Positions 282-51,136 of a DNA stretch of 51,136 nucleotides are shown piece by piece. The stretch's first letter is position 1. Each line of letters begins with the position of its first letter. Below the pieces are notes generated by a model. It ran no database searches and was not told the DNA's origin. It saw nothing but the letters and a program-made list of their open reading frames with translations. Made by a program: the position numbers and the translations under genes. Source of the stretch: an uncultured bacterium (GTDB taxonomy: Bacteria > Patescibacteriota > Minisyncoccia > Phycocordibacterales > GWA1-40-21). The stretch is from assembly GCA_903831595.1 (NCBI GenBank), contig CAIKXY010000010.1, forward strand, positions 1-51,136. Reading direction: 5' to 3'.

Positions 282-2858
282 TTTAATTTTTATTTTAATA
301 GTTGACTCTCCTTTATTGTAAACGGTATCAGAAACAACCACCCTCAATTCGTTTGTTCCGATTACGTATGAATTTGTTGAGGATGGAACAAAGCCTATAA
401 CAAACGGGAAAGAGTCCGCGGTCCCTACAAGCTCATTATTTAGGTAAAAATCGGCCCTGGTGATGGGATAACGTGTGTTTGTGGTAAACATTACACTTAC
501 CCTATTATCTTTGCCGTACTCAATGTCTTGAGATGGATAAACAATGTTTATTTTGGGCTGATTAGCTTGTACATGGACATCATCAAATTGTGTTGGTTTT
601 ATTTTAAATGGAATAGTATTTGATGCCATCCAATTTTGTACACCATATTCCCACGAATTAAACTGTGGGTCATCTGATGGGTTCGTTGGCACTGGTCCTA
701 GTGGGTCATTTTTATCTACCCAATAAAGAATTGAGTGGACATTTGGCACAGAAACTTCAACTTTTGTTTCATCAGGTGTCATATCTGTTGCAAGTTTTCC
801 AGAAATTTTGTCAATAAAATATGTTTCGTTTCCTTGCCACAAACCTCGCAACGCCGGTTTGATGTTTTTATCGATTGGTTGTGGTTTAGTACAATTATTT
901 ATTGTTGTTGTACCGAGCGCAGAGTCCATAAGCTGTCTCCAAAGTGGTGCAACAATAAGTCCAGCAACATTTTTATGCATTGGTGTATTGTCATTGTTAC
1001 CAGCCCATGTTCCCAAAACTAAATCGGGCGTGTATCCGATAGTCCAAGCATCTTTTGAATCGTTTGTTGTTCCTGTTTTTGCTGCAACTTGTCTTCCAGG
1101 GAATGTAAAAACAGAATTTGTTCCATATTCTGGTGCCTTTGCAACATTATCTGACAGTACATCAGAAATTGTTTCTGCAATATTTGGTTCAAGAACGGTT
1201 TGAGAATTTTGTGAGTAAGATTCTAAAACATTTCCTTGTAAATCCTCAACGGAAAGTATTCCAGTATAAGAATTTTTTATTCCGTCATTTGCGAAGACTC
1301 CATAAGCGCTTGTTATATCAAGTAAAGAAACCTCTCCTCCTCCAAGTACTAGCGTGAGTCCATATTGGTTTGGGTCATCAGACAGACTTTTTATTCCCAT
1401 TGATTTTGCTGTTAATAATGAGTCTCTAATTCCAGCGAGATAAAGCAATTTAATAGAAGGAATGTTTAAAGACAAAGCGAGTGCATTTCTTAATGATATT
1501 GGTCCTCGGTATAGGCCATCAAAATCTTGTGGCATATAACAAGCCGTCGATGAGGAAATCACCGCGTTTGGATCTATTGGTTCACCTTGTGGTGTACATG
1601 TCGTTTGAAATTCTGTTGGAACATCAAAAAGCACAGTATCTGGCGTGTAACCTTTTTCAAATGCGGTTGCATAAACAAAGGGTTTGAAAGTTGAGCCGGG
1701 TTGTCGGTGGGCAAGTGCTACATTAAAATTTCCATCAATTTGTTTATCAAAATAATCTCTAGAACCAACCATTTCTAAAATTTGTCCGGTTTTTGGGTCG
1801 ATCGCGACCATCGCCAAGTTTGATGCATTAAAGTTCGGAACGCTTGTTGATGCATAAGCTTTTACAATTTCTTCTGCCTTTGATTGTAAATCATAATCAA
1901 GAGTGGTAATAACTTTCAATCCTTTTTGTTGAACAGCATCTTCTCCATATTTATCAACTAAATATTGTTTTATAAATTCTACAAAGTGAGGGGCTCTTAT
2001 TCCATATTTTTCTTGGGGTAAAAATGTAACATTTTCATTTATAGCTAAGTTATACTCATTTTTTGTAATAAAATTATTTTCAAGCATTTGTGACAAAACA
2101 AGTTTTTGTCTTACATTTAACTGTTTTTTATTTTGTCCATAAGGGGAGTAGTAAGTTGGTGCCTTTGGTATTGCAGCAAGATATGCTGCTTCGGCTAAAG
2201 TGACGTCAGACGCCTTTTTACCAAAAAAAGTTTCGCTGGCTTCTTCCACGCCATAAATATTTCCACCATAAGGATTGCTGTTTAAATAAACGGAAAGAAT
2301 CTGGTCTTTCGTCATTGTTTTTTCTAGCTCAATAGAAAGAAACCACTCTTTTAGCTTTCTTGTAATAGTTTTTTCTGTGGTAAGAAGAGAATTTTTAATA
2401 ACTTGCTGTGTAATTGTTGAACCCCCCTGGCTAAAGCTACCAGAAAAGATATTTGCAAAAATAGAGCGTATTATTGAAGAAATTTTTATACCACCATGTT
2501 GGTAGAAAGTTGAGTCTTCAATTGCCACTGTGGCATTTTTAATATTTTTTGAAATACTTTCAAATGGAACGACGGTTCTTTTTGTATCGGAATGTACGTC
2601 ATAAAGTAATATTTTTCCAGTGCGGTCATATATTTTTGTTGATTGGTTAATAACCCTTGTATCAAAAGAGTTTAAATCAGGCATCTGAAAAGTAGAAATC
2701 CATAAGGCGATAAGTCCACAAAACACAAAAAATATAGCAGCAATAATTATAAAAACTTGTTTAGGGTTTTTCTTCATAAAGTGTAGTGTTTTTTTGGCTT
2801 TCGGTTTAATCGTATGGGTAATGTGGTGTCTGGCTGTTCTGATTTTGTCTTCTAACAT
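279..2858 (-). CDS. class A penicillin-binding protein (bifunctional glycosyltransferase/transpeptidase, PBP1A family)
   Basis: 859-aa ORF with an N-terminal TM helix. GT51 motifs EDSTFYQHGGI, GGSTITQQ and RKLKE. Transpeptidase SxxK (STFKP) and KTGTT. Confidence 0.9.
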   Translation of the reverse strand: MLEDKIRTARHHITHTIKPKAKKTLHFMKKNPKQVFIIIAAIFFVFCGLIALWISTFQMPDLNSFDTRVINQSTKIYDRTGKILLYDVHSDTKRTVVPFESISKNIKNATVAIEDSTFYQHGGIKISSIIRSIFANIFSGSFSQGGSTITQQVIKNSLLTTEKTITRKLKEWFLSIELEKTMTKDQILSVYLNSNPYGGNIYGVEEASETFFGKKASDVTLAEAAYLAAIPKAPTYYSPYGQNKKQLNVRQKLVLSQMLENNFITKNEYNLAINENVTFLPQEKYGIRAPHFVEFIKQYLVDKYGEDAVQQKGLKVITTLDYDLQSKAEEIVKAYASTSVPNFNASNLAMVAIDPKTGQILEMVGSRDYFDKQIDGNFNVALAHRQPGSTFKPFVYATAFEKGYTPDTVLFDVPTEFQTTCTPQGEPIDPNAVISSSTACYMPQDFDGLYRGPISLRNALALSLNIPSIKLLYLAGIRDSLLTAKSMGIKSLSDDPNQYGLTLVLGGGEVSLLDITSAYGVFANDGIKNSYTGILSVEDLQGNVLESYSQNSQTVLEPNIAETISDVLSDNVAKAPEYGTNSVFTFPGRQVAAKTGTTNDSKDAWTIGYTPDLVLGTWAGNNDNTPMHKNVAGLIVAPLWRQLMDSALGTTTINNCTKPQPIDKNIKPALRGLWQGNETYFIDKISGKLATDMTPDETKVEVSVPNVHSILYWVDKNDPLGPVPTNPSDDPQFNSWEYGVQNWMASNTIPFKIKPTQFDDVHVQANQPKINIVYPSQDIEYGKDNRVSVMFTTNTRYPITRADFYLNNELVGTADSFPFVIGFVPSSTNSYVIGTNELRVVVSDTVYNKGESTIKIKIK

Positions 2859-4120: not shown

Positions 4121-4597
4121 ATGAAAGTTATAGCAATAGACCCAGGGTACGAAAGAATGGGTGTAGCAATTATAGAAAAGACCTCGAGGGAAGAGGTTTT
4201 GTTGTTTTCCGAATGTTTTAAAACATCTTCAAAAATTTTCCATGCAGAAAGATTAAAACTTATTGGAAAAGAAATTGAGAGTTTAATTAAAAAATATAAA
4301 CCAGAAGCAATGGCAATTGAAACTTTGTTTTTTAAAAATAATCAAAAAACAGCGATGCTTGTGGCTGAAGCTAGGGGGGTGATGCTTTATGTTGCATCAG
4401 CGCTTGGCGTTTCTGTAAAAGAATTTTCTCCAATGGCTATAAAAATAGCTGTGACGGGATATGGAAATTCCGATAAAGAGCAGGTCACATATATGGTAGA
4501 AAAATTAATTAAAATAAAAACAAAAATCAAATACGATGATGAGTATGATGCAATAGCAGTGGGGCTTACATATTTTGCGAGTGTAAAAAACTATTAA
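4121..4597 (+). CDS. ruvC: crossover junction endodeoxyribonuclease RuvC
   Basis: 158 aa. MKVIAIDPGYERMGVAIIE N-terminus, AIETLFF and C-terminal DDEYDAIAVG acidic catalytic residues typical of RuvC. Confidence 0.9.
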   Translation: MKVIAIDPGYERMGVAIIEKTSREEVLLFSECFKTSSKIFHAERLKLIGKEIESLIKKYKPEAMAIETLFFKNNQKTAMLVAEARGVMLYVASALGVSVKEFSPMAIKIAVTGYGNSDKEQVTYMVEKLIKIKTKIKYDDEYDAIAVGLTYFASVKNY

Positions 4598-5173: not shown

Positions 5174-5704
5174 TTACTCCGCATTCGTATAAACCTCTTG
5201 AACATCATCATTATTTTCCAAATCTTCAATCAATTTTTCCAATTTCGGAGTATCTTCTTCTGACACCTGCGTCATCATTTTAGGAATCCAGCCTTCAGGT
5301 TTTTTATCAAATGCCCAAGAAGCACTACCAGAACTTGCAAGGGAAGTATCATTTAAAGATAAAATATGTTTAATTTCTGCAGCGGCTCTGTTTTTATTTG
5401 ATGTAAGGCCTTCAATTATAATTGCTACTCCTCCTGGACCGTAAGCTTCGTAAGTAACTTCTTCCATTTGTTCCGCACCAGCACCGACAGCTTTTTTAAT
5501 TGCTCTATCAATATTATCGTTTGGCATGTCAGCGGCTTTTGCTCTTTCAATCGCAGCCTTAAGGCCTGGCGAAAGTAAGTTGCCATTAGCTTTTTTTGCT
5601 TCCATTTGCAAAAGTTTTGCATATTTTGTAAACACAGCACTTTTTTGTGCATCAGTCTTTGCTTTTAATCTTTTTATTTTTGAAAATTTATTATGCCCAC
5701 TCAT
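5174..5704 (-). CDS. YebC/PmpR family DNA-binding regulator (shortened form)
   Basis: MSGHNKFSKIKRLKA...YEAYGPGGVAIIIE...DDVQEVYTN matches YebC N- and C-terminal signatures. It is 176 aa against about 240 aa in the canonical family. Confidence 0.85.
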   Translation of the reverse strand: MSGHNKFSKIKRLKAKTDAQKSAVFTKYAKLLQMEAKKANGNLLSPGLKAAIERAKAADMPNDNIDRAIKKAVGAGAEQMEEVTYEAYGPGGVAIIIEGLTSNKNRAAAEIKHILSLNDTSLASSGSASWAFDKKPEGWIPKMMTQVSEEDTPKLEKLIEDLENNDDVQEVYTNAE

Positions 5705-5783: not shown

Positions 5784-6971
5784 ATGTTTAATTTTACTAA
5801 CATTTTTGAAAGTGAAATAGAAAAAGAGAAAAAAATAGATATACCAGCATTTTTTAATTTTACACTCCCAATAACACAAAAAGAAAAAGAAATTATAAAA
5901 CAAGTATCTAAGTCCAATGATATTAGTTGGGTTTCAAGAAACGTTTTAGAAACGGCTGACTTCGACACCACCTTTAAATGGCCCAAAAAACTTCCAGAGG
6001 GTTTTAACCCAGAAGAATTAATTGAAGGATGTAAAAATCCCGGGCTTGGAATCGATGAACTTCATAAGAGTGGTATTACCGGTAAGGGAATAACGGTTGC
6101 AATTATTGATCAAACAATTTCTCCAAAGCACAAAGAATTTAAAAATAATTTGATTAAAAATAAAGAATATAGTGATGGAAAACCAAAAATAATTATGGGT
6201 AAAATTAGTATGCACGGACCGGCGGTTGCCAGCCTCCTTGTTGGGAAAAAATGTGGTGTTGCTCCCGATGCAAAGCTTTATTATGCAGGGCATGGTGGAG
6301 AAACCAATAGTTTTTTAAGTTTTACAAAAGCATTAAAAGATATTATTGAATATAACAAAACTCATGAAGATAAAATTAAAATAGTTAGTGTTTCAAAGGG
6401 ATATCAAGAAATTCCAGGGGTAAAAGAATGGCTTGAACTTAAAAAAGAAGCCAAAAACCTAGGCATTACTGTTATTGATTGTGATTATTTTAATGAAAAT
6501 AATATTCATGGAGGTGGTTCAATAATAAACAAAGATAAACCAGACGATTATGAATTACCACTTTTCTATCCAAATTCGCAAAGAAATATACCCTCAATAG
6601 AAGACCTTAAACATAAACTTTCTTTAACTGATGAATATACACGAAAAAATTTCTTTGATAAATATAAAACAGAGCAAAATTATATTAACACAATTAAAGA
6701 ATCTTTAATTGTGCCGTCGGATTACAGAACAATGGCTTCTATGAAAGGAAATGATGAATATGTATATAATGCAAAAGGGGGATGGAGTTGGGCAGTACCC
6801 TATTATGCTGGAGTTTTTGCACTTGCTTTACAAGTAAACCCAGATTTAACAAATGAAAAGTTTTTAGAGATTGTAAAAAGAACGGCAGGTAAAACAAAAA
6901 AAGGATTTAAAGTAATTAACCCTCCGGGAATAATTGAGGAGGTAAAGAAAACGGTTGAAAAAGAAAAATAA
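5784..6971 (+). CDS. subtilisin-like (S8 family) serine peptidase
   Basis: Asp/His/Ser triad contexts GKGITVAIIDQ, HGPAVASLLVG and GGWSWAVPYYAGVFALAL in the S8 order. No obvious signal peptide. Confidence 0.6.
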   Translation: MFNFTNIFESEIEKEKKIDIPAFFNFTLPITQKEKEIIKQVSKSNDISWVSRNVLETADFDTTFKWPKKLPEGFNPEELIEGCKNPGLGIDELHKSGITGKGITVAIIDQTISPKHKEFKNNLIKNKEYSDGKPKIIMGKISMHGPAVASLLVGKKCGVAPDAKLYYAGHGGETNSFLSFTKALKDIIEYNKTHEDKIKIVSVSKGYQEIPGVKEWLELKKEAKNLGITVIDCDYFNENNIHGGGSIINKDKPDDYELPLFYPNSQRNIPSIEDLKHKLSLTDEYTRKNFFDKYKTEQNYINTIKESLIVPSDYRTMASMKGNDEYVYNAKGGWSWAVPYYAGVFALALQVNPDLTNEKFLEIVKRTAGKTKKGFKVINPPGIIEEVKKTVEKEK

Positions 6972-34440: not shown

Positions 34441-34848
34441 AGTATTAGTATAAAAATACATGAGCGATATTTTAAATTTTACAAATTTGATAGCTTACCA
34501 AAAAGCTCATACATTAGTACTTGAAATTTATAAAATTACCAGCAAATTTCCTAAAACTGAGCAATTCTGTTTGGTAAACCAGATAAGAAGAGCTGGAATT
34601 TCTGTTACGTCAAATATTGCCGAAGGTTTTGCCCGCATGACCGCCAAAGACAAAATTCATTTTTATGGAATGTCTCGCGGATCACTTTTAGAATTACAAA
34701 GTCAAATATTTATTGGAAAAGATTTAAATTATTTGTCAACAGAAGATTATAAAAATACTGAAGAAAAAATCACGGAGGTAAATAAATTACTTTTAGGTAT
34801 AATTAAATCAGCAAAAAATTACTAATACTAATACTTTATACTAATACT
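34441..34848. repeat. 14-bp perfect inverted repeat bracketing the four-helix-bundle gene
   Basis: agtattagtataaa (34441-34454) and tttatactaatact (34835-34848), embedded in AGTAT(A/T)AGTAT word repeats. Confidence 0.7.
34460..34825 (+). CDS. four-helix-bundle protein (23S rRNA intervening-sequence protein / Avd-like family)
   Basis: 121 aa. AYQKAHTLVLEIYKITSKFPKTEQFCLVNQIRRAGISVTSNIAEGFAR...FYGMSRGSLLELQSQ is the family signature. Confidence 0.85.
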   Translation: MSDILNFTNLIAYQKAHTLVLEIYKITSKFPKTEQFCLVNQIRRAGISVTSNIAEGFARMTAKDKIHFYGMSRGSLLELQSQIFIGKDLNYLSTEDYKNTEEKITEVNKLLLGIIKSAKNY

Positions 34849-35877: not shown

Positions 35878-36489
35878 ATGGATAACATGCTCAAAAAAGC
35901 ACTTCGCGATTATCGCGAACTGCGCGAACAGTTTGAAAACGTATTGTTAGGCGAAGAAAGCGAACTTTGGGAGAGAGAAGCGAGAAAGTTTCTCTCAAAA
36001 CGCCCCTGCTGGAATCAGAAAGAAAATAGCTACCTGAAGCTAATTTCTGATGGCAAAAAAGTTGTTATTGCTTCAACAGACGGCAAGGAAACTATCGCCA
36101 ATGCTCAGAAAATTTTTCCGAGCGGTATAGATTCTGATTTCAAAAACTGGAATCTCGATGTGCCGAGTACACCGACCAAGGAAACAAAAACGCAAGTTTT
36201 TGAGATGGTCAAGGACGGCATGTTCAAGGATATCTTCGGAAGTTTTGGAGAAAACTTGGACCGTCTGTGCTTCACGCAAAGCCAAATCATCTTTTTTGTG
36301 AAAAACCACGCTAAGTGGCTTCGCACTGGTGGCTATGGAACCTTCTTTCTCTTTAAAGTCGGGAAGGATTATTTCGTGGCGAACGTGTACTTGAACTCTG
36401 ATGGGCTTTACGTGTACGTGGATCGCTTCTCGTGTGGCTACGTCTGGTGTGCTGAGTACAGGCGTCGGATTGTTGTCCCACAACTGTAA
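35878..36489 (+). CDS. DGR-1 variable (target) protein
   Basis: The preferred start is ATG 35878, preceded by AAGGGAGGA. The ORF-track TTG 35788 lies inside the leader hairpin. The C-terminal approximately 38 codons are VR1. No signal peptide. Confidence 0.85.
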   Translation: MDNMLKKALRDYRELREQFENVLLGEESELWEREARKFLSKRPCWNQKENSYLKLISDGKKVVIASTDGKETIANAQKIFPSGIDSDFKNWNLDVPSTPTKETKTQVFEMVKDGMFKDIFGSFGENLDRLCFTQSQIIFFVKNHAKWLRTGGYGTFFLFKVGKDYFVANVYLNSDGLYVYVDRFSCGYVWCAEYRRRIVVPQL

Positions 36490-36496
36490 TTTTTTC
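36368..36496 (+). repeat. DGR-1 variable repeat (VR1) including IMH-like 3' end
   Basis: Ungapped alignment to TR1 (offset 458). In 36368-36479 there are 13 mismatches, all at TR adenines. Confidence 0.9.
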
Positions 36497-36825: not shown

Positions 36826-36954
36826 ATAATTTCGTGGCGAACGTGAACTTGAACTCTGATGGGCTTAACGTGAACGTGAATCGCTTCTCGAATGACAACG
36901 TCTGGAATGCTGAGAACAGGCATCGGATTGTTGTCCCGAAACTAAAATATTTTC
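36826..36954 (+). repeat. DGR-1 template repeat (TR1)
   Basis: Asn-codon-rich (AAC/AAT) invariant copy of VR1. It is translated as a spurious ORF in the track (MANVNLNSDGLNVNVNRFSNDNVWNAENRHRIVVP). Confidence 0.9.
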
Positions 36955-36980
36955 TCCCGCTTATTTGGCGGGAGTTTTTT
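36954..36980 (+). terminator. hairpin plus U-run immediately 3' of TR1
   Basis: ctcccgc-ttatttg-gcgggag followed by tttttt. The avd stop codon (complement of tta 36961-36963) lies in the loop. Confidence 0.55.
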
Positions 36981-37260
36981 GTTGTAAACCTTTTTTCCAT
37001 CCACCGAGCATTCTTCCAATTTCTTCTAATTTTTCAGACAACTCAATATATTTTTCATTTGGTATCAATTTACTTTCCCATGCAAGTTGGGAGAAGAATT
37101 TTAGAGTATCTAATTTTGTTATTGTTTTTCCTAGTAGTATAATCTTTGATTCAGGAGGTAAATATACTGATGCAAAACTAAATTCTAGAATATCTAAAAA
37201 TGAACTCTCTATCTTTTGTCCAATACCAAAGCGTTCAGTTTTAGGAAAATTTCTGTGCAA
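36961..37260 (-). CDS. avd: DGR accessory variability determinant (Avd-like four-helix-bundle protein), 5' end ambiguous
   Basis: FPKTERFGIGQKIE...KLDTLK...EIGRMLGGW resembles Avd/IVS four-helix-bundle proteins. The TTG start at 37260 truncates helix 1, and the frame stays open upstream to the G10 tract. ATG 37345 would be in frame if the tract were one base shorter. Confidence 0.8.
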   Translation of the reverse strand: MHRNFPKTERFGIGQKIESSFLDILEFSFASVYLPPESKIILLGKTITKLDTLKFFSQLAWESKLIPNEKYIELSEKLEEIGRMLGGWKKGLQQKTPAK

Positions 37261-37319
37261 ATTTAGCCAAAATTGATAAGCATCTTTTTCTTTTGATATT
37301 ACAACGGGCGATTTCTGTA

Positions 37320-37329
37320 GGGGGGGGGG
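37320..37329. repeat. G10 homopolymer between/within the avd 5' end and RT upstream region (DGR-1)
   Basis: Direct reading: ttctgta + G10 + tcac. Confidence 0.95.
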
Positions 37330-37355
37330 TCACTTTATAGTTCATATAATTTATT

Positions 37356-38339
37356 ATGGAAATTAATTTTAATACTTACGATACTATCATATCTCTAAAA
37401 AATATTCACGAAGCTTGGCGTGAATTTATTTCTGACAAAAGATATAAAAATGATGTTGCCGAATATGCGCTTGCTCTTTCAAATAATATATCTAACTTAC
37501 ACCATGATTTGAAAAATAAAACATATATTCATTTTGGATATAAAGCTTTTTCTATTAATGACCCAAAACCAAGAAATATTCATAAAGCAATTGTGCGTGA
37601 TCGATTATTACACCATGCGATTTATAGGATTCTTTACCCTTATTTTGATAAAAAATTCATACACGATTCATACTCATGTAGAAATTTTAAAGGCACACAT
37701 AAAGCATGTAATCGTTTTAGAGATTTTGCGAGAAAAGTATCAAAAAATCACAGTAGAACATGCTGGGTTTTAAAATGTGATATAAGAAAGTTTTTTGCTT
37801 CTATAGACCATCTTATTTTGCTGAATATTTTAAAAAGACATATTTTTGATGTTGATACTCTATGGCTTTTAGAAAAAGTCATAGAAAGTTTTAGTAGCAC
37901 TCAAAAAGGAAAAGGCTTGCCTCTTGGGAATCTGACATCACAACTTTTGGTAAATATTTATATGAACGAGTTTGACCAATATATAAAACATACTCTTAAA
38001 ATAAAATATTATATTCGATATGCCGATGATTTTTTGGTATTAAGTGATAAAAAAGAAGAGTTGAAATCTTTGCTCGTTTTAATAGATACATTTTTAAAAG
38101 AAAGGCTTGCTTTATTACTGCATCCAAATAAAGTATTTATAAAAACATTTGCTTCCGGGGTTGATTTTCTCGGTTGGGTGAATTTTTCTGACCATAGAGT
38201 TTTGAGGACAGCCACAAAAAGAAAAATGTTTAGAAAATTAAAGGAAAGTAACAAAAAAGAAACCATTCAGTCGTATTTGGGTATGTTAAAACATGGAAAT
38301 GGTTTTAAACTTAGAAATAGAGTAACCAATTTTTTGTAA
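37356..38339 (+). CDS. DGR-type reverse transcriptase
   Basis: 327 aa with RT motifs including LPLGNLTSQLLVNIYMNEFD (the DGR-typical SQ motif) and IRYADDFLVL (YxDD). Confidence 0.95.
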   Translation: MEINFNTYDTIISLKNIHEAWREFISDKRYKNDVAEYALALSNNISNLHHDLKNKTYIHFGYKAFSINDPKPRNIHKAIVRDRLLHHAIYRILYPYFDKKFIHDSYSCRNFKGTHKACNRFRDFARKVSKNHSRTCWVLKCDIRKFFASIDHLILLNILKRHIFDVDTLWLLEKVIESFSSTQKGKGLPLGNLTSQLLVNIYMNEFDQYIKHTLKIKYYIRYADDFLVLSDKKEELKSLLVLIDTFLKERLALLLHPNKVFIKTFASGVDFLGWVNFSDHRVLRTATKRKMFRKLKESNKKETIQSYLGMLKHGNGFKLRNRVTNFL

Positions 38340-47151: not shown

Positions 47152-48975
47152 ATGGAAAACCTCGACTTCCTCAAAAATAAATACAATCTACACAATACAG
47201 AAGAAGTAGAAAAAGCAGCAAAACGCACAGAAAAGCGCACTGGAGAAAAAGTGCCACAAAATCCAAAAGATCAGATACAAAACTACCTAGACAGATTCAC
47301 CGAAATTATTGAAAGAAAGGAACCAGGGAAAAGAGAAAGGGGAATAGAAGCTATAAAAAGTGTTATAGATGACAAGTACATTATTAAACCTGAAGAAATT
47401 CCAGAAAGCTATTATGAAAACCAAAGGCGAATCGCTCGTGAACAAGGCCATGGAGATGTTGAAATAACCGATGAGGCAAGAAATCAACTCAAAGAAGTCA
47501 TAATAAAAGATCAAAAAGATTCTCTAGACAACTGGATTGACTACCTATCATCAAAAGATGCCACATATCCAGACTGGCTCAAGTATTTTGCTATTAGAAA
47601 TCTTCTCGGAATGGGAGAATATGATAAAGAAAAGAAACAATTCACTAAAAGATCAAAAGGCACAGTAAAGCCATTCCCAGACATAAACAGAGAAGCATTA
47701 GCATATGTACTAGATGCAATAGAGAAGAAACATAAAGGAATACCAAACGATAAAGACCCAGAATTCCAGGCTCTTCTACGAGGAGAAAATTTTGCTAAAC
47801 TCTATGCATGGGCTATAGACAAAGCTACACCAGAATCGGAGAAAGGACTTACAAACATAAAGGGTGAATGGGTAAAGTATAGACAAGGCAAAGACCACAT
47901 GCCACTCGTAGAATCTTTGCAAGGTCATGGAACAGGATGGTGCACAGCAGGAGAGTCAACAGCAAAAGCTCAACTGGAAGGCGGTGACTTCTATGTATAT
48001 TATTCAGAAGATAAAAATGGAAAATCAAATGTTCCAAGAGCTGCTATTCGTATGCAAGGAAATGAAATAGGTGAAGTCAGAGGTATAGGAGCAGACCAAA
48101 ACCTAGACCCATACATTGGTGATGTAGTAAAAAAGAAACTTACAGAATTTCCAGATGGAGACAAATACAAAAAGAAAGAAGCTAATATGAAACTTCTTAC
48201 TCAAATAGATAACAAAACAAAACTAAAACAACCTCTTATAAAAGATGAACTCATTTTTCTATATGAAGTAAACACTGAAATCGAAGGCTTTGGATATCAA
48301 AGAGATCCTCGCATAAAAGAAATAATCGACCAAAGAAATCCAAAAGAAGATGCACCTATAGTTTTTGATTGTCAGCCAAATCAAATCGCATATTCTGAGA
48401 AAAAAATAAATAAAGATACAAAAGCTTATGTTGGACCTCTATTCAAGGGAATATTCCAAACAAACATTGACCATATAGGAACTTCTTTCCCAGAGGGAAT
48501 GTTGAAAAAGATGGAAGCTGAAATTGGTGGAAAAAATAAAAAAGAACTCGAGAAAGAACTAAAGGAAAATAAAGTTTGGATTTCGGATTATGCTAAAAGC
48601 ATGATGAACAATTCTGATTTCACTACATCAAAAAAATTAGAACAATTAAATCTCGCTCGTATCACTGTAAAATCTCTCGGTTTTCCAAATGGCGCCACAA
48701 CTGATGAAATATACAAAAAAGCGGAAGAACTTGGTTTAGAATTATGTCCAGCAGAAGTCGGTCCCCAGCTTCGTTTGCAGTATTTGGACCAGCCAAATGG
48801 AGAATATATTTTTATAGGAATGAAACAAATTTCTGACTCCGTTGGCTACCCGAGCGTGTTCAATGTGCTCCGCTACGACGATGGCAGGCTGGAGCTCGAC
48901 GGCCGCAGCGCTAAGCCTGACGATAGGTGGGGTGGCGGCCGCGGGTTTGTGTTCCGCATGCCTCGCAAGTCTTAG
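47152..48975 (+). CDS. DGR-2 variable (target) protein
   Basis: 607 aa with no signal peptide. The C-terminal approximately 47 codons are VR2. The last ~100 aa resemble the C-terminus of the DGR-1 target. Confidence 0.85.
   Translation: [607 protein letters not shown]
48829..48968 (+). repeat. DGR-2 variable repeat (VR2)
   Basis: Ungapped alignment to TR2 (offset 446). There are 22 mismatches, all at TR adenines. The invariant 3' block is gtttgtgttccgcatgcctcgcaa. Confidence 0.9.
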
Positions 48976-49213: not shown

Positions 49214-49274
49214 GCCAAATTAGATTCAATCCCGAGAGCATTCAAGGGGTGGTGGTAAAGAAGATATTTTGCAC

Positions 49275-49414
49275 ATTTCTGACTCCGATGGCAACCCGAA
49301 CGTGTTCAATGTGAACCGCAACGACGATGGCAAGCTGAAGCTCAACGACAACAACGCTAAGCCTGACAATAGGTGGAATGACAACAACGAGTTTGTGTTC
49401 CGCATGCCTCGCAA
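49275..49414 (+). repeat. DGR-2 template repeat (TR2)
   Basis: AAC/AAT-rich copy of VR2, seen in the track as the spurious ORF ...SDSDGNPNVFNVNRNDDGKLKLNDNNAKPDNRWNDNNEFVFRMPR. Confidence 0.9.
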
Positions 49415-49426
49415 CTCTTTTCATTT

Positions 49427-49457
49427 CTCTCCCATTTATTTGGGAGAGTTTTGTTTT
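49427..49457 (+). terminator. hairpin plus U-run immediately 3' of TR2
   Basis: ctctccca-tttatt-tgggagag followed by ttttgtttt. It is homologous in position and shape to 36954-36980. Confidence 0.55.
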
Positions 49458-49775
49458 CCCCCACACCTTTCATTTTATCCTCTCAAATCATATAATGATG
49501 GTTATGTTTTATCTCTATATATTGAAAAGCACTAAGGATGATAATTTGTATATAGGCTCTACAAATGATTTGAGACGAAGACTTTCTGAACATAGTAATG
49601 GAAAAGTACGTTCAACAAAATCTCGTGTCCCATTTGAACTTAGATATTACGAATCATTTTTCAAAGAGATAGACGCAAGGAAAAGAGAGTTTTCGCTTAA
49701 AAAAGATGGTAAAGCACTCGGACAATTGAAAAGAAGAATTTCAGAAAGTCTTAAATAAAATGAAAGGTGTGGGGG
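49458..49775 (+). mobile_element. 318-bp TIR-bounded element encoding a small GIY-YIG protein, inserted in DGR-2
   Basis: 21-bp perfect terminal inverted repeats (49458-49478 cccccacacctttcattttat / 49755-49775). They are flanked by 9-bp direct repeats, ttttgtttt (49449-49457) and ttttgtctt (49776-49784). The element is absent at the homologous DGR-1 site. Confidence 0.75.
49495..49758 (+). CDS. GIY-YIG nuclease family protein (small UPF0213/YhbQ-like)
   Basis: MMVMFYLYILKS...NLYIGSTNDLRRRLSEH...YYESF...KREFSLKK shows GIY-YIG motif spacing. It is about 87 aa, and the stop codon lies within the right TIR. Confidence 0.8.
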   Translation: MMVMFYLYILKSTKDDNLYIGSTNDLRRRLSEHSNGKVRSTKSRVPFELRYYESFFKEIDARKREFSLKKDGKALGQLKRRISESLK

Positions 49776-50110
49776 TTTTGTCTTAATATCTGCCCATTCC
49801 AACCACCTAGCATTTTTCCAATTTCATCTAAATGGAGAGATAAAGCGATATACTTTTTATTATCCAAAGATTTTGTTTCCCACAAAACCATAAGCAAGAT
49901 TTTCAATGTGTCTAATTTTCTGATGGCAACAGATATATAAGTTCTTTTTTCTTCTTTTGGCAGGAAACTTGCTACAGAAATTGCTTCTATGATTTCTATA
50001 AATAATGTGTCAATTCTATTTCCTAGAGAATATCTATGTGGTTTGGGCAGAATTTGATAATATTCATACCAAAGAATATAAGCAGTTTTTACTTTCTGTA
50101 AAAGTGGCAA
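49751..50110 (-). CDS. avd: DGR accessory variability determinant (Avd-like), 5' end ambiguous
   Basis: Paralog of 36961..37260 (…RKLDTLKILL…EIGKMLGGW…). It has a TTG start in the track. The frame continues through the G9 tract, and upstream ATGs (50136, 50139, 50145) are out of frame by one base. Confidence 0.8.
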   Translation of the reverse strand: MPLLQKVKTAYILWYEYYQILPKPHRYSLGNRIDTLFIEIIEAISVASFLPKEEKRTYISVAIRKLDTLKILLMVLWETKSLDNKKYIALSLHLDEIGKMLGGWNGQILRQNPHTFHFI

Positions 50111-50123
50111 AAGTTTCTGTAGA

Positions 50124-50132
50124 GGGGGGGGG
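50124..50132. repeat. G9 homopolymer at the avd 5' end / RT upstream region (DGR-2)
   Basis: Direct reading: ttctgtaga + G9 + tcat. Confidence 0.95.
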
Positions 50133-50168
50133 TCATCATAGTCATGTTTTTTGTGTTGTAATTATATT

Positions 50169-51136
50169 ATGTTTAAAATTCAATTCATTAATAAATATAA
50201 AGATATCATTGAAATGGAAAATCTCCTAGAAGCGTGGAGAGAATTTGTTGTAGGTAAAAAATTAAGAAAGGATGTGGAAGATTTTCAAAGACATTTAATG
50301 AATAATATTATTTCACTTCATAAAGATTTAGAGACAAAAACATATAAACATTCTTCCTATGAGGCATTTAATATTTCCGACCCAAAACCAAGAAATATAC
50401 ATAAAGCAAAAGTGAGAGATAGACTGCTACATCATGCTTTATACAGGAAACTTTATCCGTTTTTTGATAAAACATTCATAGCTGATTCGTATTCTTGCAG
50501 GGTCGGAAAGGGAACTCATAAAGCGTTGGAGAGATTTAAGTCTTTTTCAAATAAAGTATCAAAAAATAATACAAAAACGGTTTGGATTTTGAAATGTGAT
50601 ATCAGAAAGTTTTTTGCTTCAATAGACCAAGAAGTTTTGTTGAGAATATTGAATAGTTATATACCAGATAAAGATATTATATCTATTTTATCTGAAATTA
50701 TTGGTAGTTTTTATTCCACTGAAAAAGGTAAAGGTTTGCCTCTTGGAAATCTAACGTCACAACTTTTGGTAAATATTTATATGAACGAATTTGACCAATT
50801 TGTAAAACACAAACTAAAAGCAAAATATTATATACGATATGCAGATGATTTTGTGATTTTTTCTGAGAATAAAAATAAATTAGAAGACTTACTCTTATGT
50901 ATAAGAGTGTTTCTTTGTGAAAAATTAAAATTAGAATTGCATCCAAATAAAGTTTTTATAAAAACTCTGGCCTCGGGCGTTGATTTTCTTGGTTGGGTGA
51001 ATTTTTCTGACCATAGAGTTTTGAGAACAACTACAAAAAGAAAAATGTTTAGAAATATAAAAATGAAAGAAGGAAAAATAGAGACGGTTCAATCATATCT
51101 TGGGTTGTTGAGCCATGGGAATGCTCAAAAATTGAG
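50169..51136 (+). CDS. DGR-type reverse transcriptase, 3' end outside window
   Basis: Open frame from ATG 50169 to the window edge. The translation MFKIQFINKYKDIIEMENLLEAWREF...LPLGNLTSQLLVNIYMNEFDQF...IRYADDFVIF is highly similar to RT 37356..38339. It is missing from the ORF track because no stop codon lies in the window. Confidence 0.9.
   Translation, partial: MFKIQFINKYKDIIEMENLLEAWREFVVGKKLRKDVEDFQRHLMNNIISLHKDLETKTYKHSSYEAFNISDPKPRNIHKAKVRDRLLHHALYRKLYPFFDKTFIADSYSCRVGKGTHKALERFKSFSNKVSKNNTKTVWILKCDIRKFFASIDQEVLLRILNSYIPDKDIISILSEIIGSFYSTEKGKGLPLGNLTSQLLVNIYMNEFDQFVKHKLKAKYYIRYADDFVIFSENKNKLEDLLLCIRVFLCEKLKLELHPNKVFIKTLASGVDFLGWVNFSDHRVLRTTTKRKMFRNIKMKEGKIETVQSYLGLLSHGNAQKL

Follow-up and report, generated by a model that had tools for sequence, protein, structure and literature searches.

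Why should both of the DGR cassettes in one bacterial contig carry an accessory gene, avd, that is thrown out of frame at the same place, by a run of nine or ten C residues, and in opposite directions? This is the question raised by the window, i.e., the whole stretch of 51,136 nucleotides (51 kb, 33% GC) that was analyzed here, and it touches on the natural on/off control of DGR mutagenesis, which to our knowledge is largely unknown. The first-pass annotation, made from the letters alone, had preferred heterogeneity or slippage of the tract to simple gene decay, and here we weigh this suggestion against the other explanations of the broken frames.

The Two DGR Cassettes of the Window

Both cassettes have the same order, namely a target gene with its variable repeat (VR, + strand), the template repeat (TR, +), avd (− strand), and the DGR reverse transcriptase (RT, +). 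In DGR-1, VR-1 (36368–36496, +) forms the 3′ end of the target gene (35788/35869–36489) and pairs with TR-1 (36826–36954, +), followed by avd-1 (36961–37345, −) and RT-1 (37356–38339, +; 327 aa). In DGR-2, VR-2 (48826–48973, +), at the 3′ end of the target gene 47152–48975, pairs with TR-2 (49272–49419, +), and avd-2 (49751–50145, −) is divergent from RT-2 (50169–51136, +), which runs past the end of the window. The two RTs match RVT_1 (PF00078; E = 1.4e-25 for RT-1 and 3.2e-26 for RT-2) and share the sequence LGNLTSQ of the I/LGxxxSQ motif. The TR/VR differences are adenine-specific in both cassettes, with 17 of the 18 mismatches in DGR-1 and 22 of the 24 in DGR-2 placed at TR adenines, and therefore both are genuine DGRs with past activity. 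Once their frames are corrected, the two bAvd-like proteins score 49.5 (Avd-1) and 42.3 bits (Avd-2) against PF22296 (bAvd, gathering score 40), matching from residue 16–17 on, and the same family was found on 2163 and 628 homologs. The Avd alignment profile found no match among PDB sequences at E values up to 0.01, so the N-terminus is not mappable by sequence onto a solved Avd. The avd and RT starts are 10 nt apart in DGR-1 and 23 nt apart in DGR-2, without overlap.

Other features accompany these cassettes. A GC-rich hairpin plus a T run directly follows each TR (36954–36974 and 49427–49448, +), which suggests that the TR RNA may be a transcript separate from the RT mRNA; the DGR-1 hairpin is also readable as an avd-1 terminator on the opposite strand. 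An ORF of 121 aa (34460–34825, +), about 1 kb from the DGR-1 target on its upstream side, encodes a stand-alone four-helix bundle, with precomputed 23S_rRNA_IVP and bAvd matches on a twin contig of the same strain, and lacks a repeat tract. A small GIY-YIG nuclease ORF (49510–49758, +; PF01541, E = 4e-15), placed between TR-2 and the stop of avd-2, looks like an inserted mobile gene, given that a strain 97.8% identical to the window has about 180 nt there (L168) as compared with about 520 nt in the window.

The G9 and G10 runs (+ strand) at homologous positions of these paralogous cassettes are the only G/C runs of at least 8 in the window, the next longest being one G7, and A/T runs reach 8 at most. 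With 5 matches to G8 observed and 0.4 expected from shuffles, these tracts are not chance features. On the minus strand, they are the C9 and C10 tracts located 1–5 codons after the avd ATG.

The C9 tract of avd-2 (50124–50132, −), which we take to be hypermutable, stands in the sequence ATG ACT ATG ATG A-C9-TCTACAG. The three ATGs of this start cluster (50134–50145, starting at 50145, 50139, and 50136) share one frame, which from 50145 reaches a stop after 18 codons (MTMMTPPLYRNFCHFYRK*), and the avd-2 core frame reads HDYDDPPPLQKLLPLLQKVKTAY across the tract. Coordinates and frame arithmetic thus bear out what the annotation had claimed, i.e., that the G9 run puts these ATGs out of frame, that the avd-2 frame has no ATG of its own, and that one base more is needed; C7 or C13 would serve as well as C10, and the core frame lacks GTG and TTG in addition to ATG all the way from the upstream stop to TTG 50110. 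It is at this TTG that the called ORF begins (49751–50110, 119 aa), and an exact look-up of its product found no record. With C10, the computed reading is MTMMTPPPLQKLL..., that is, a protein with the N-terminus MTMMTPPPLQK.... In avd-1, the ATG (37345–37343) is in frame only if the C10 tract (37320–37329, −) becomes C9 or C12, in agreement with the claim that this locus needs one base fewer. As annotated, avd-1 gives a 99-aa product from TTG 37260 with a truncated bAvd domain; this same product (P0286) is on record in NCBI/ENA, so that the deposited annotation is truncated. The distances from the tract to the RT ATG are 26 nt at DGR-1 (37356) and 36 nt at DGR-2 (50169), as had been given.

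Tract Length Varies in Otherwise Identical DNA

In the window contig, both avd genes are therefore in what we call the OFF phase, with the upstream start out of frame, and ON alleles of both loci are found in sister assemblies. For avd-2, a 711-nt contig from another assembly (L167) differs from window 49719–50428 by two SNPs and by having C10 instead of C9, and it encodes a product (P0152) with 100% identity to the MTMMTPPPLQK... protein that had been predicted from the window alone. This protein and a second one (P0151) begin at the avd-2 ATG cluster in C10 alleles, and the strain 97.8% identical to the window (L168/L169) has C10 as well. For avd-1, the twin contig of the window strain (L081), identical over 4891 nt, carries the same G10, and being the only hit of the RT-1 look-up it is uninformative on polymorphism. 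Nevertheless, an in-frame allele of avd-1 does exist in two other assemblies (L176 and L177), although it is not the simple C9 that had been predicted; it reads GTG-TGTGTGCGGT-C9, is 8 nt longer than the GTGA-C10 of the window, and encodes MNYKVCVRSPPLQK.... The stretch ahead of its C9, GTGTGTGTGCGGT, is a short (GT)n-like insertion (L176 1–60 and L177 30–75, corresponding to window 37320–37345). Heterogeneity of tract length, as the annotation had proposed, is thus present at both loci.

The same kind of polymorphism was seen in other strains. In one of them, recovered from many samples, five contigs have C10 (L162–166) and six have C11 (L170–175), and most pairs differ by the tract only over 2.1–3.4 kb; database records place the C10 product on 32 contigs and the C11 product on at least 11 contigs, and 21 of these were read. 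Two ATGs in different frames lie upstream of this tract, so that C10 gives MLIPMIKLNTLHTTNGTPPPT... and C11 gives MVPPPPT..., and two of the three phases may be productive in this strain, with differing N-termini. Further pairs are L092/L107, identical over 1157 nt except for C9 vs. C10; L097/L110, with one SNP plus C10 vs. C11 over 3736 nt; and L006/L053, with C11 vs. C9 and 99.2% identity overall. Consistently, the N-termini within protein clusters at 90% identity vary as changes of the tract predict, with PP, PPP, or PPPP, plus some internal-start calls.

Besides homopolymers, the differences between L006 and L053 are almost exclusively concentrated in three VR-like clusters (682–790, 4356–4416, and 5424–5446). 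The first of these falls at the 3′ end of a target gene with an Lcl_C domain and looks as if a DGR had recently diversified it between the strains.

The Repeat in Related Patescibacteria

Relatives were fetched by means of the Avd protein and not by means of the tract (80 loci of species-representative genomes plus 80 metagenome contigs), and all of them are Patescibacteria-type sequences. Among 151 comparable loci, a poly-C of at least 8 is present in 114, C5–7 in 16, another SSR in 13, and none in 7, and the poly-C length ranges from 5 to 14 with a mode of 9–10, as read from short-read assemblies (MEGAHIT k141 names) in which homopolymer lengths carry some error. The comparison with other members of this DGR lineage, which had been put forward as a check, hence supports heterogeneity of the tract. 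Other G/C runs of at least 8 amount to only a handful in the 777 kb of fetched DNA.

At the same site, the other SSRs are (GCCA)9-11, (GTCA)13, (AGCC)6-8, (CAAC)8-11, (CAAT)7, (ACGA)9, and (GA)6, and a 7-mer, (AGCAATC), in about eight copies or more, also replaces the poly-C. These non-poly-C repeats belong to a single subclade with flanks 85–95% identical, in which the copy number varies among relatives and one member has no repeat at all. The type of repeat is therefore swapped while its unit is never a multiple of 3, which is the outcome expected if mutability is selected, but not if a peptide or a binding site is.

The avd and RT genes of most relatives overlap head to head, with the first 10–20 avd codons antisense to the RT N-terminus and the avd ATG antisense to a conserved RT His codon (about position 7–8). 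For this reason, conservation of the avd ATG is not independent evidence of a start codon.

We scored the frame in 143 SSR-bearing loci and found 63 ON (57 with an in-frame ATG and 6 with an in-frame GTG/TTG only) and 80 OFF, the latter needing one base fewer (46 loci) or one more (25), being ambiguous (7), or lacking an upstream ATG (2). The core ORF of avd is intact (at least 111 codons) in all 143, either ON or OFF. An upstream start is in frame in 6/7 loci with no SSR, in 12/16 with C5–7, in 9/12 with 4-nt and 7-nt repeats, and in 31/95 with C9–11, i.e., at the chance rate of about one third for the latter (C5–7 vs. C9–11, Fisher's test, p = 0.002). Where the tract is short or absent, the statistics reveal selection on the avd frame, and together with the intact core ORFs they argue against decay and indicate that avd truly starts at the upstream ATG and that long tracts drift freely through the three phases.

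A Probable Phase-Variable Avd

We consider it probable that this tract works as a contingency-type SSR that confers phase variation on Avd, and through it on DGR activity, in a large DGR lineage of the Patescibacteria. A non-multiple-of-3 repeat in the 5′ coding region, of polymorphic length, that moves an ORF in and out of frame is what is found in contingency loci, and here the tract, its frame consequences, its length polymorphism, its replacement by other non-multiple-of-3 repeats, and the frame statistics are all directly seen. From this we infer functional switching, in which DGR activity would follow the phase. Slipped-strand mispairing at replication would alter the length of the tract, and each change of length would shift the avd start codon in or out of frame with the bAvd domain. 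An out-of-frame tract should abolish Avd and thereby silence mutagenic retrohoming, while an in-frame tract should permit it. In the DGR of Bordetella phage, bRT alone has no RT activity and Avd is needed (PMC6182149); because of this requirement, known only from the Bordetella phage system, the OFF phase should stop mutagenic retrohoming. The expected result would be a stochastic and heritable ON/OFF gate on the diversifier, presumably reversible within a clone.

Alternatives to the Proposed Switch

The simplest rival explanations deny that the broken frames exist or matter. Long homopolymers of G/C are prone to error, the contigs come from short-read assembly, and one relative has an N run exactly on the avd tract (L062, near 3480), indicating that assemblers struggle at this site, so that sequencing or assembly errors might hide tracts that are in truth all in frame; we hold this to be very improbable, given that such an error would have to hit two thirds of the C9–11 tracts, that C10 and C11 each recur in many independent samples and both also within JGI assemblies, that G10 is identical in two contigs of the window strain, that the copy number of tetranucleotides varies too among loci with flanks 85–95% identical, and that other A/T8 runs of the window leave their ORFs unbroken. 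Gene decay of both avd copies into pseudogenes, which would account for the two frameshifts of the window contig, can hardly be credited when avd has no other lesion, the core ORF remains intact in 143/143 relatives at 60–95% amino-acid identity, in-frame alleles of both loci occur in sister assemblies, and the break is always at the same repeat; in this respect, the preference of the first-pass annotation for slippage over decay has held. An internal start downstream of the tract (TTG 50110 in avd-2 and TTG 37260 in avd-1), which would leave the tract untranslated and its phase irrelevant, was named there as one of the findings that would overturn the claim, and the evidence goes against it. 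Gene callers often pick such internal starts, and the 119-aa product of avd-2 loses none of the Pfam bAvd match, whose first residue is number 17 in the 131-aa form, but the TTG start of avd-1 would remove bAvd profile positions 4–16. Moreover, only about half of the loci have TTG at the codon homologous to TTG 50110, the others having TTA, CTG, CTC, ATA, or CTA, i.e., a codon for Leu or Ile throughout, as one would expect if it is translated, and the loci with stable or absent tracts keep their upstream ATG in frame. Usually only 0–8 nt separate the tract from the codons of the conserved LLPLLQK peptide, which leaves no room for a start, and the codons following the tract vary synonymously (Leu as TTG, TTA, CTG, or CTA), so translation begins at or before the tract. 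An internal start is possible for avd-2 only, and as a general explanation it is improbable. A frame-blind expression of Avd deserves more attention, although we still judge it unlikely. Homopolymers of at least 9 are known slippage sites for RNA polymerase, and slippage of this enzyme on C9–C11, or ribosomal frameshifting on CCC, would give a constant in-frame minority, with the tract setting a low dose of Avd instead of an ON/OFF state. The 31/95 in-frame share of C9–11, exactly at chance while short tracts are mostly in frame, also fits a DNA phase that is irrelevant, e.g., through RNA polymerase slippage, and both DGRs have been active in the past although the two loci of the window are thrown out of frame, one in each direction. 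Against this, the length polymorphism is seen at the DNA level, one subclade has tetranucleotide or heptanucleotide repeats, which are DNA-slippage substrates and not known transcript-slippage sites, and the needed shift changes from locus to locus, among those needing one base fewer or one more, the ambiguous ones, and those with no upstream ATG, without any conserved direction of recoding. RNA folding around both window tracts, on both strands, found no structure beyond shuffles (avd-sense z = −0.08 and −0.01) and hence no stimulatory element near either of them. Slippage of RNA polymerase or of the ribosome may nonetheless add leakiness to the proposed switch.

A different rival accepts the tract as functional but places its function on the other strand, the G run being mainly a promoter element of the divergent RT (and of other genes) whose length would tune RT transcription, with the avd frame as a collateral effect. 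In the RT sense, a TAnnnT hexamer follows the G run directly (offset 0) in 55/129 poly-C loci, while every other offset accounts for at most 15, and RT most often begins 13 nt past the tract (30 loci), which gives a leaderless-like −10 box + N7 + ATG. This abutting hexamer is equally frequent in avd-ON (21/52) and avd-OFF (34/77) loci, as befits a DNA-level feature, and one relative (L006) has two extra G10 runs 12 nt upstream of the ATGs of other genes, one encoding a secreted peptidoglycan-binding protein and the other being a second bAvd-like gene, and one of these two runs is polymorphic as compared with L053. However, in the window loci no −10-like hexamer adjoins the tract, and the RT ATGs are 26 and 36 nt away from it; the repeat arrays of the subclade, 26–57 nt long, cannot be a −35/−10 spacer; no clear −35 was found in the relatives; tract length shows no correlation with how far away the upstream hexamer lies (r = −0.04), with no spacer compensation; and the frame statistics of the short and absent tracts point to selection on the avd frame. 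We therefore regard this promoter reading, which is compatible with a switch, as having a small chance of being the main explanation, comparable to that of frame-blind expression. The suggestion that tract length could additionally affect the divergent RT leader is accordingly plausible for the many relatives in which the G run adjoins a −10-like hexamer, and conjectural for the two window loci, for which it had been made.

Further observations concern the same region. In the relatives (L001–L161, e.g., L055, L092, and L023) and not in the window, the arrangement G(7–14) + TAnnnT + 7 nt + ATG of RT recurs, which suggests that in them the RT mRNA may be leaderless, with a −10 box touching the repeat. 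The extra G10 runs of L006 lie at 546–555 and 2395–2404 (minus-strand sense), before the second bAvd-like gene and the gene of the secreted peptidoglycan-binding protein, and the second of them reads G10-TATAAT-AATAGA-ATG and is a G9 in the near-identical L053 (2422–2430). A scan for the sigma-70 consensus around both window tracts gave 7 vs. 4.4 ± 2.3 and 4 vs. 3.1 ± 1.9 in shuffles, within about 1.1 sd, and no convincing promoter of RT or avd. A TAnnnT exactly 7 nt upstream of the avd ATG (96 cases) was rejected as independent promoter evidence, being the antisense of conserved RT codons. Programmed recoding was rejected as well, in view of a phase spread over all three frames, window loci that need opposite shifts, and the lack of a stimulatory structure around them. 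Another relative (L072) ends in a G48 run (6297–6344, at the contig end) that is probably a sequencing artifact.

A phase-variable Avd could also be combined with the promoter layout into a two-sided stochastic switch across the Patescibacteria, acting on one strand through the avd frame and on the opposite strand next to the −10 box of a leaderless RT promoter; subpopulations would thereby flip between diversifying and variant-keeping states. In its full form, this would be a heritable switch of evolvability kept by second-order selection, given that one type of repeat has given way to another (poly-C, 4-mers, and 7-mer) with the frame-shifting property retained. We put forward this wider proposal tentatively, as a possibility that is rather doubtful as a whole.

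Implications

If the switch exists, it would solve a problem inherent in these systems, as continuous diversification would erase useful variants, and a slippage-prone repeat in avd would provide a simple, heritable, and reversible gate. The regulation question can be addressed in existing metagenomes by relating tract phase to VR heterogeneity per strain and sample. The switch would also carry contingency loci beyond pathogens adapted to a host, into ultra-small bacteria of the environment. On the practical side, with most long tracts out of frame, avd is truncated or missed by gene callers in more than half of these cassettes, and therefore DGR surveys that require an intact avd will undercount or misannotate them.

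Comparison with Known Systems

Phase variation by SSRs and DGRs are each well known separately. Intragenic SSRs control phase variation in Neisseria pilC and in Campylobacter genes by poly-G/C, in Haemophilus influenzae lic1 by (CAAT)n, and in mod genes by (AGCC)n. The avd repeat resembles these contingency loci in that its unit, located within the codons that directly follow the ATG, is no multiple of 3, in its length polymorphism within otherwise identical DNA together with a mixture of ON and OFF over assemblies, and in the shared unit types poly-C, (CAAT)n, and (AGCC)n. For some Haemophilus genes, two productive phases have been reported, owing to an additional ATG in a different frame, comparable to the strain with C10 and C11 alleles described above. 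In contrast, the gene gated here would encode the accessory protein of a targeted-hypermutation system instead of a surface structure or a restriction-modification enzyme, and the hosts are uncultured environmental Patescibacteria, known here from assembled sequences, and not host-adapted pathogens.

Phase-variable promoters are represented by the poly-G/C of porA and opc in N. meningitidis and by the (TA)n of the divergent hifA-hifB promoter in H. influenzae. The likeness consists of one repeat shared by a divergent gene pair, in which, in 43% of the relatives, a −10-like hexamer of RT immediately follows the G run. The differences are that no convincing −35 was found, that spacer compensation is missing, that this layout is absent from the window loci, and that the avd repeat is also inside the coding region of the opposite gene.

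Like the DGR of Bordetella phage BPP-1 (avd-TR-brt), these cassettes have an RT with LGxxxSQ, a bAvd-like four-helix bundle, and an adenine-specific TR/VR pair. Their order is different (target-VR, TR, avd on the reverse strand, RT), with avd and RT divergent and their starts 10–23 nt apart, or overlapping in many relatives, and we know of no SSR in the avd of BPP-1. In the full-text literature, whose scope leaves out the main CPR DGR paper (Paul et al. 2017), we found nothing relevant that links DGRs with homopolymer or SSR phase variation, or the Patescibacteria/CPR with phase variation. Judging from the sequences, what would be new, and was not found described in the searchable literature, is the gating of a targeted hypermutation system by a hypermutable switch, conserved over a large uncultured lineage. 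Its closest counterparts in logic are the phasevarions and phase-variable mutators, in which a simple switch also stands over a higher-order generator of diversity; unlike them, the avd tract would govern the diversification of one defined target gene, and not methylation-dependent regulons or the genome-wide mutation rate.
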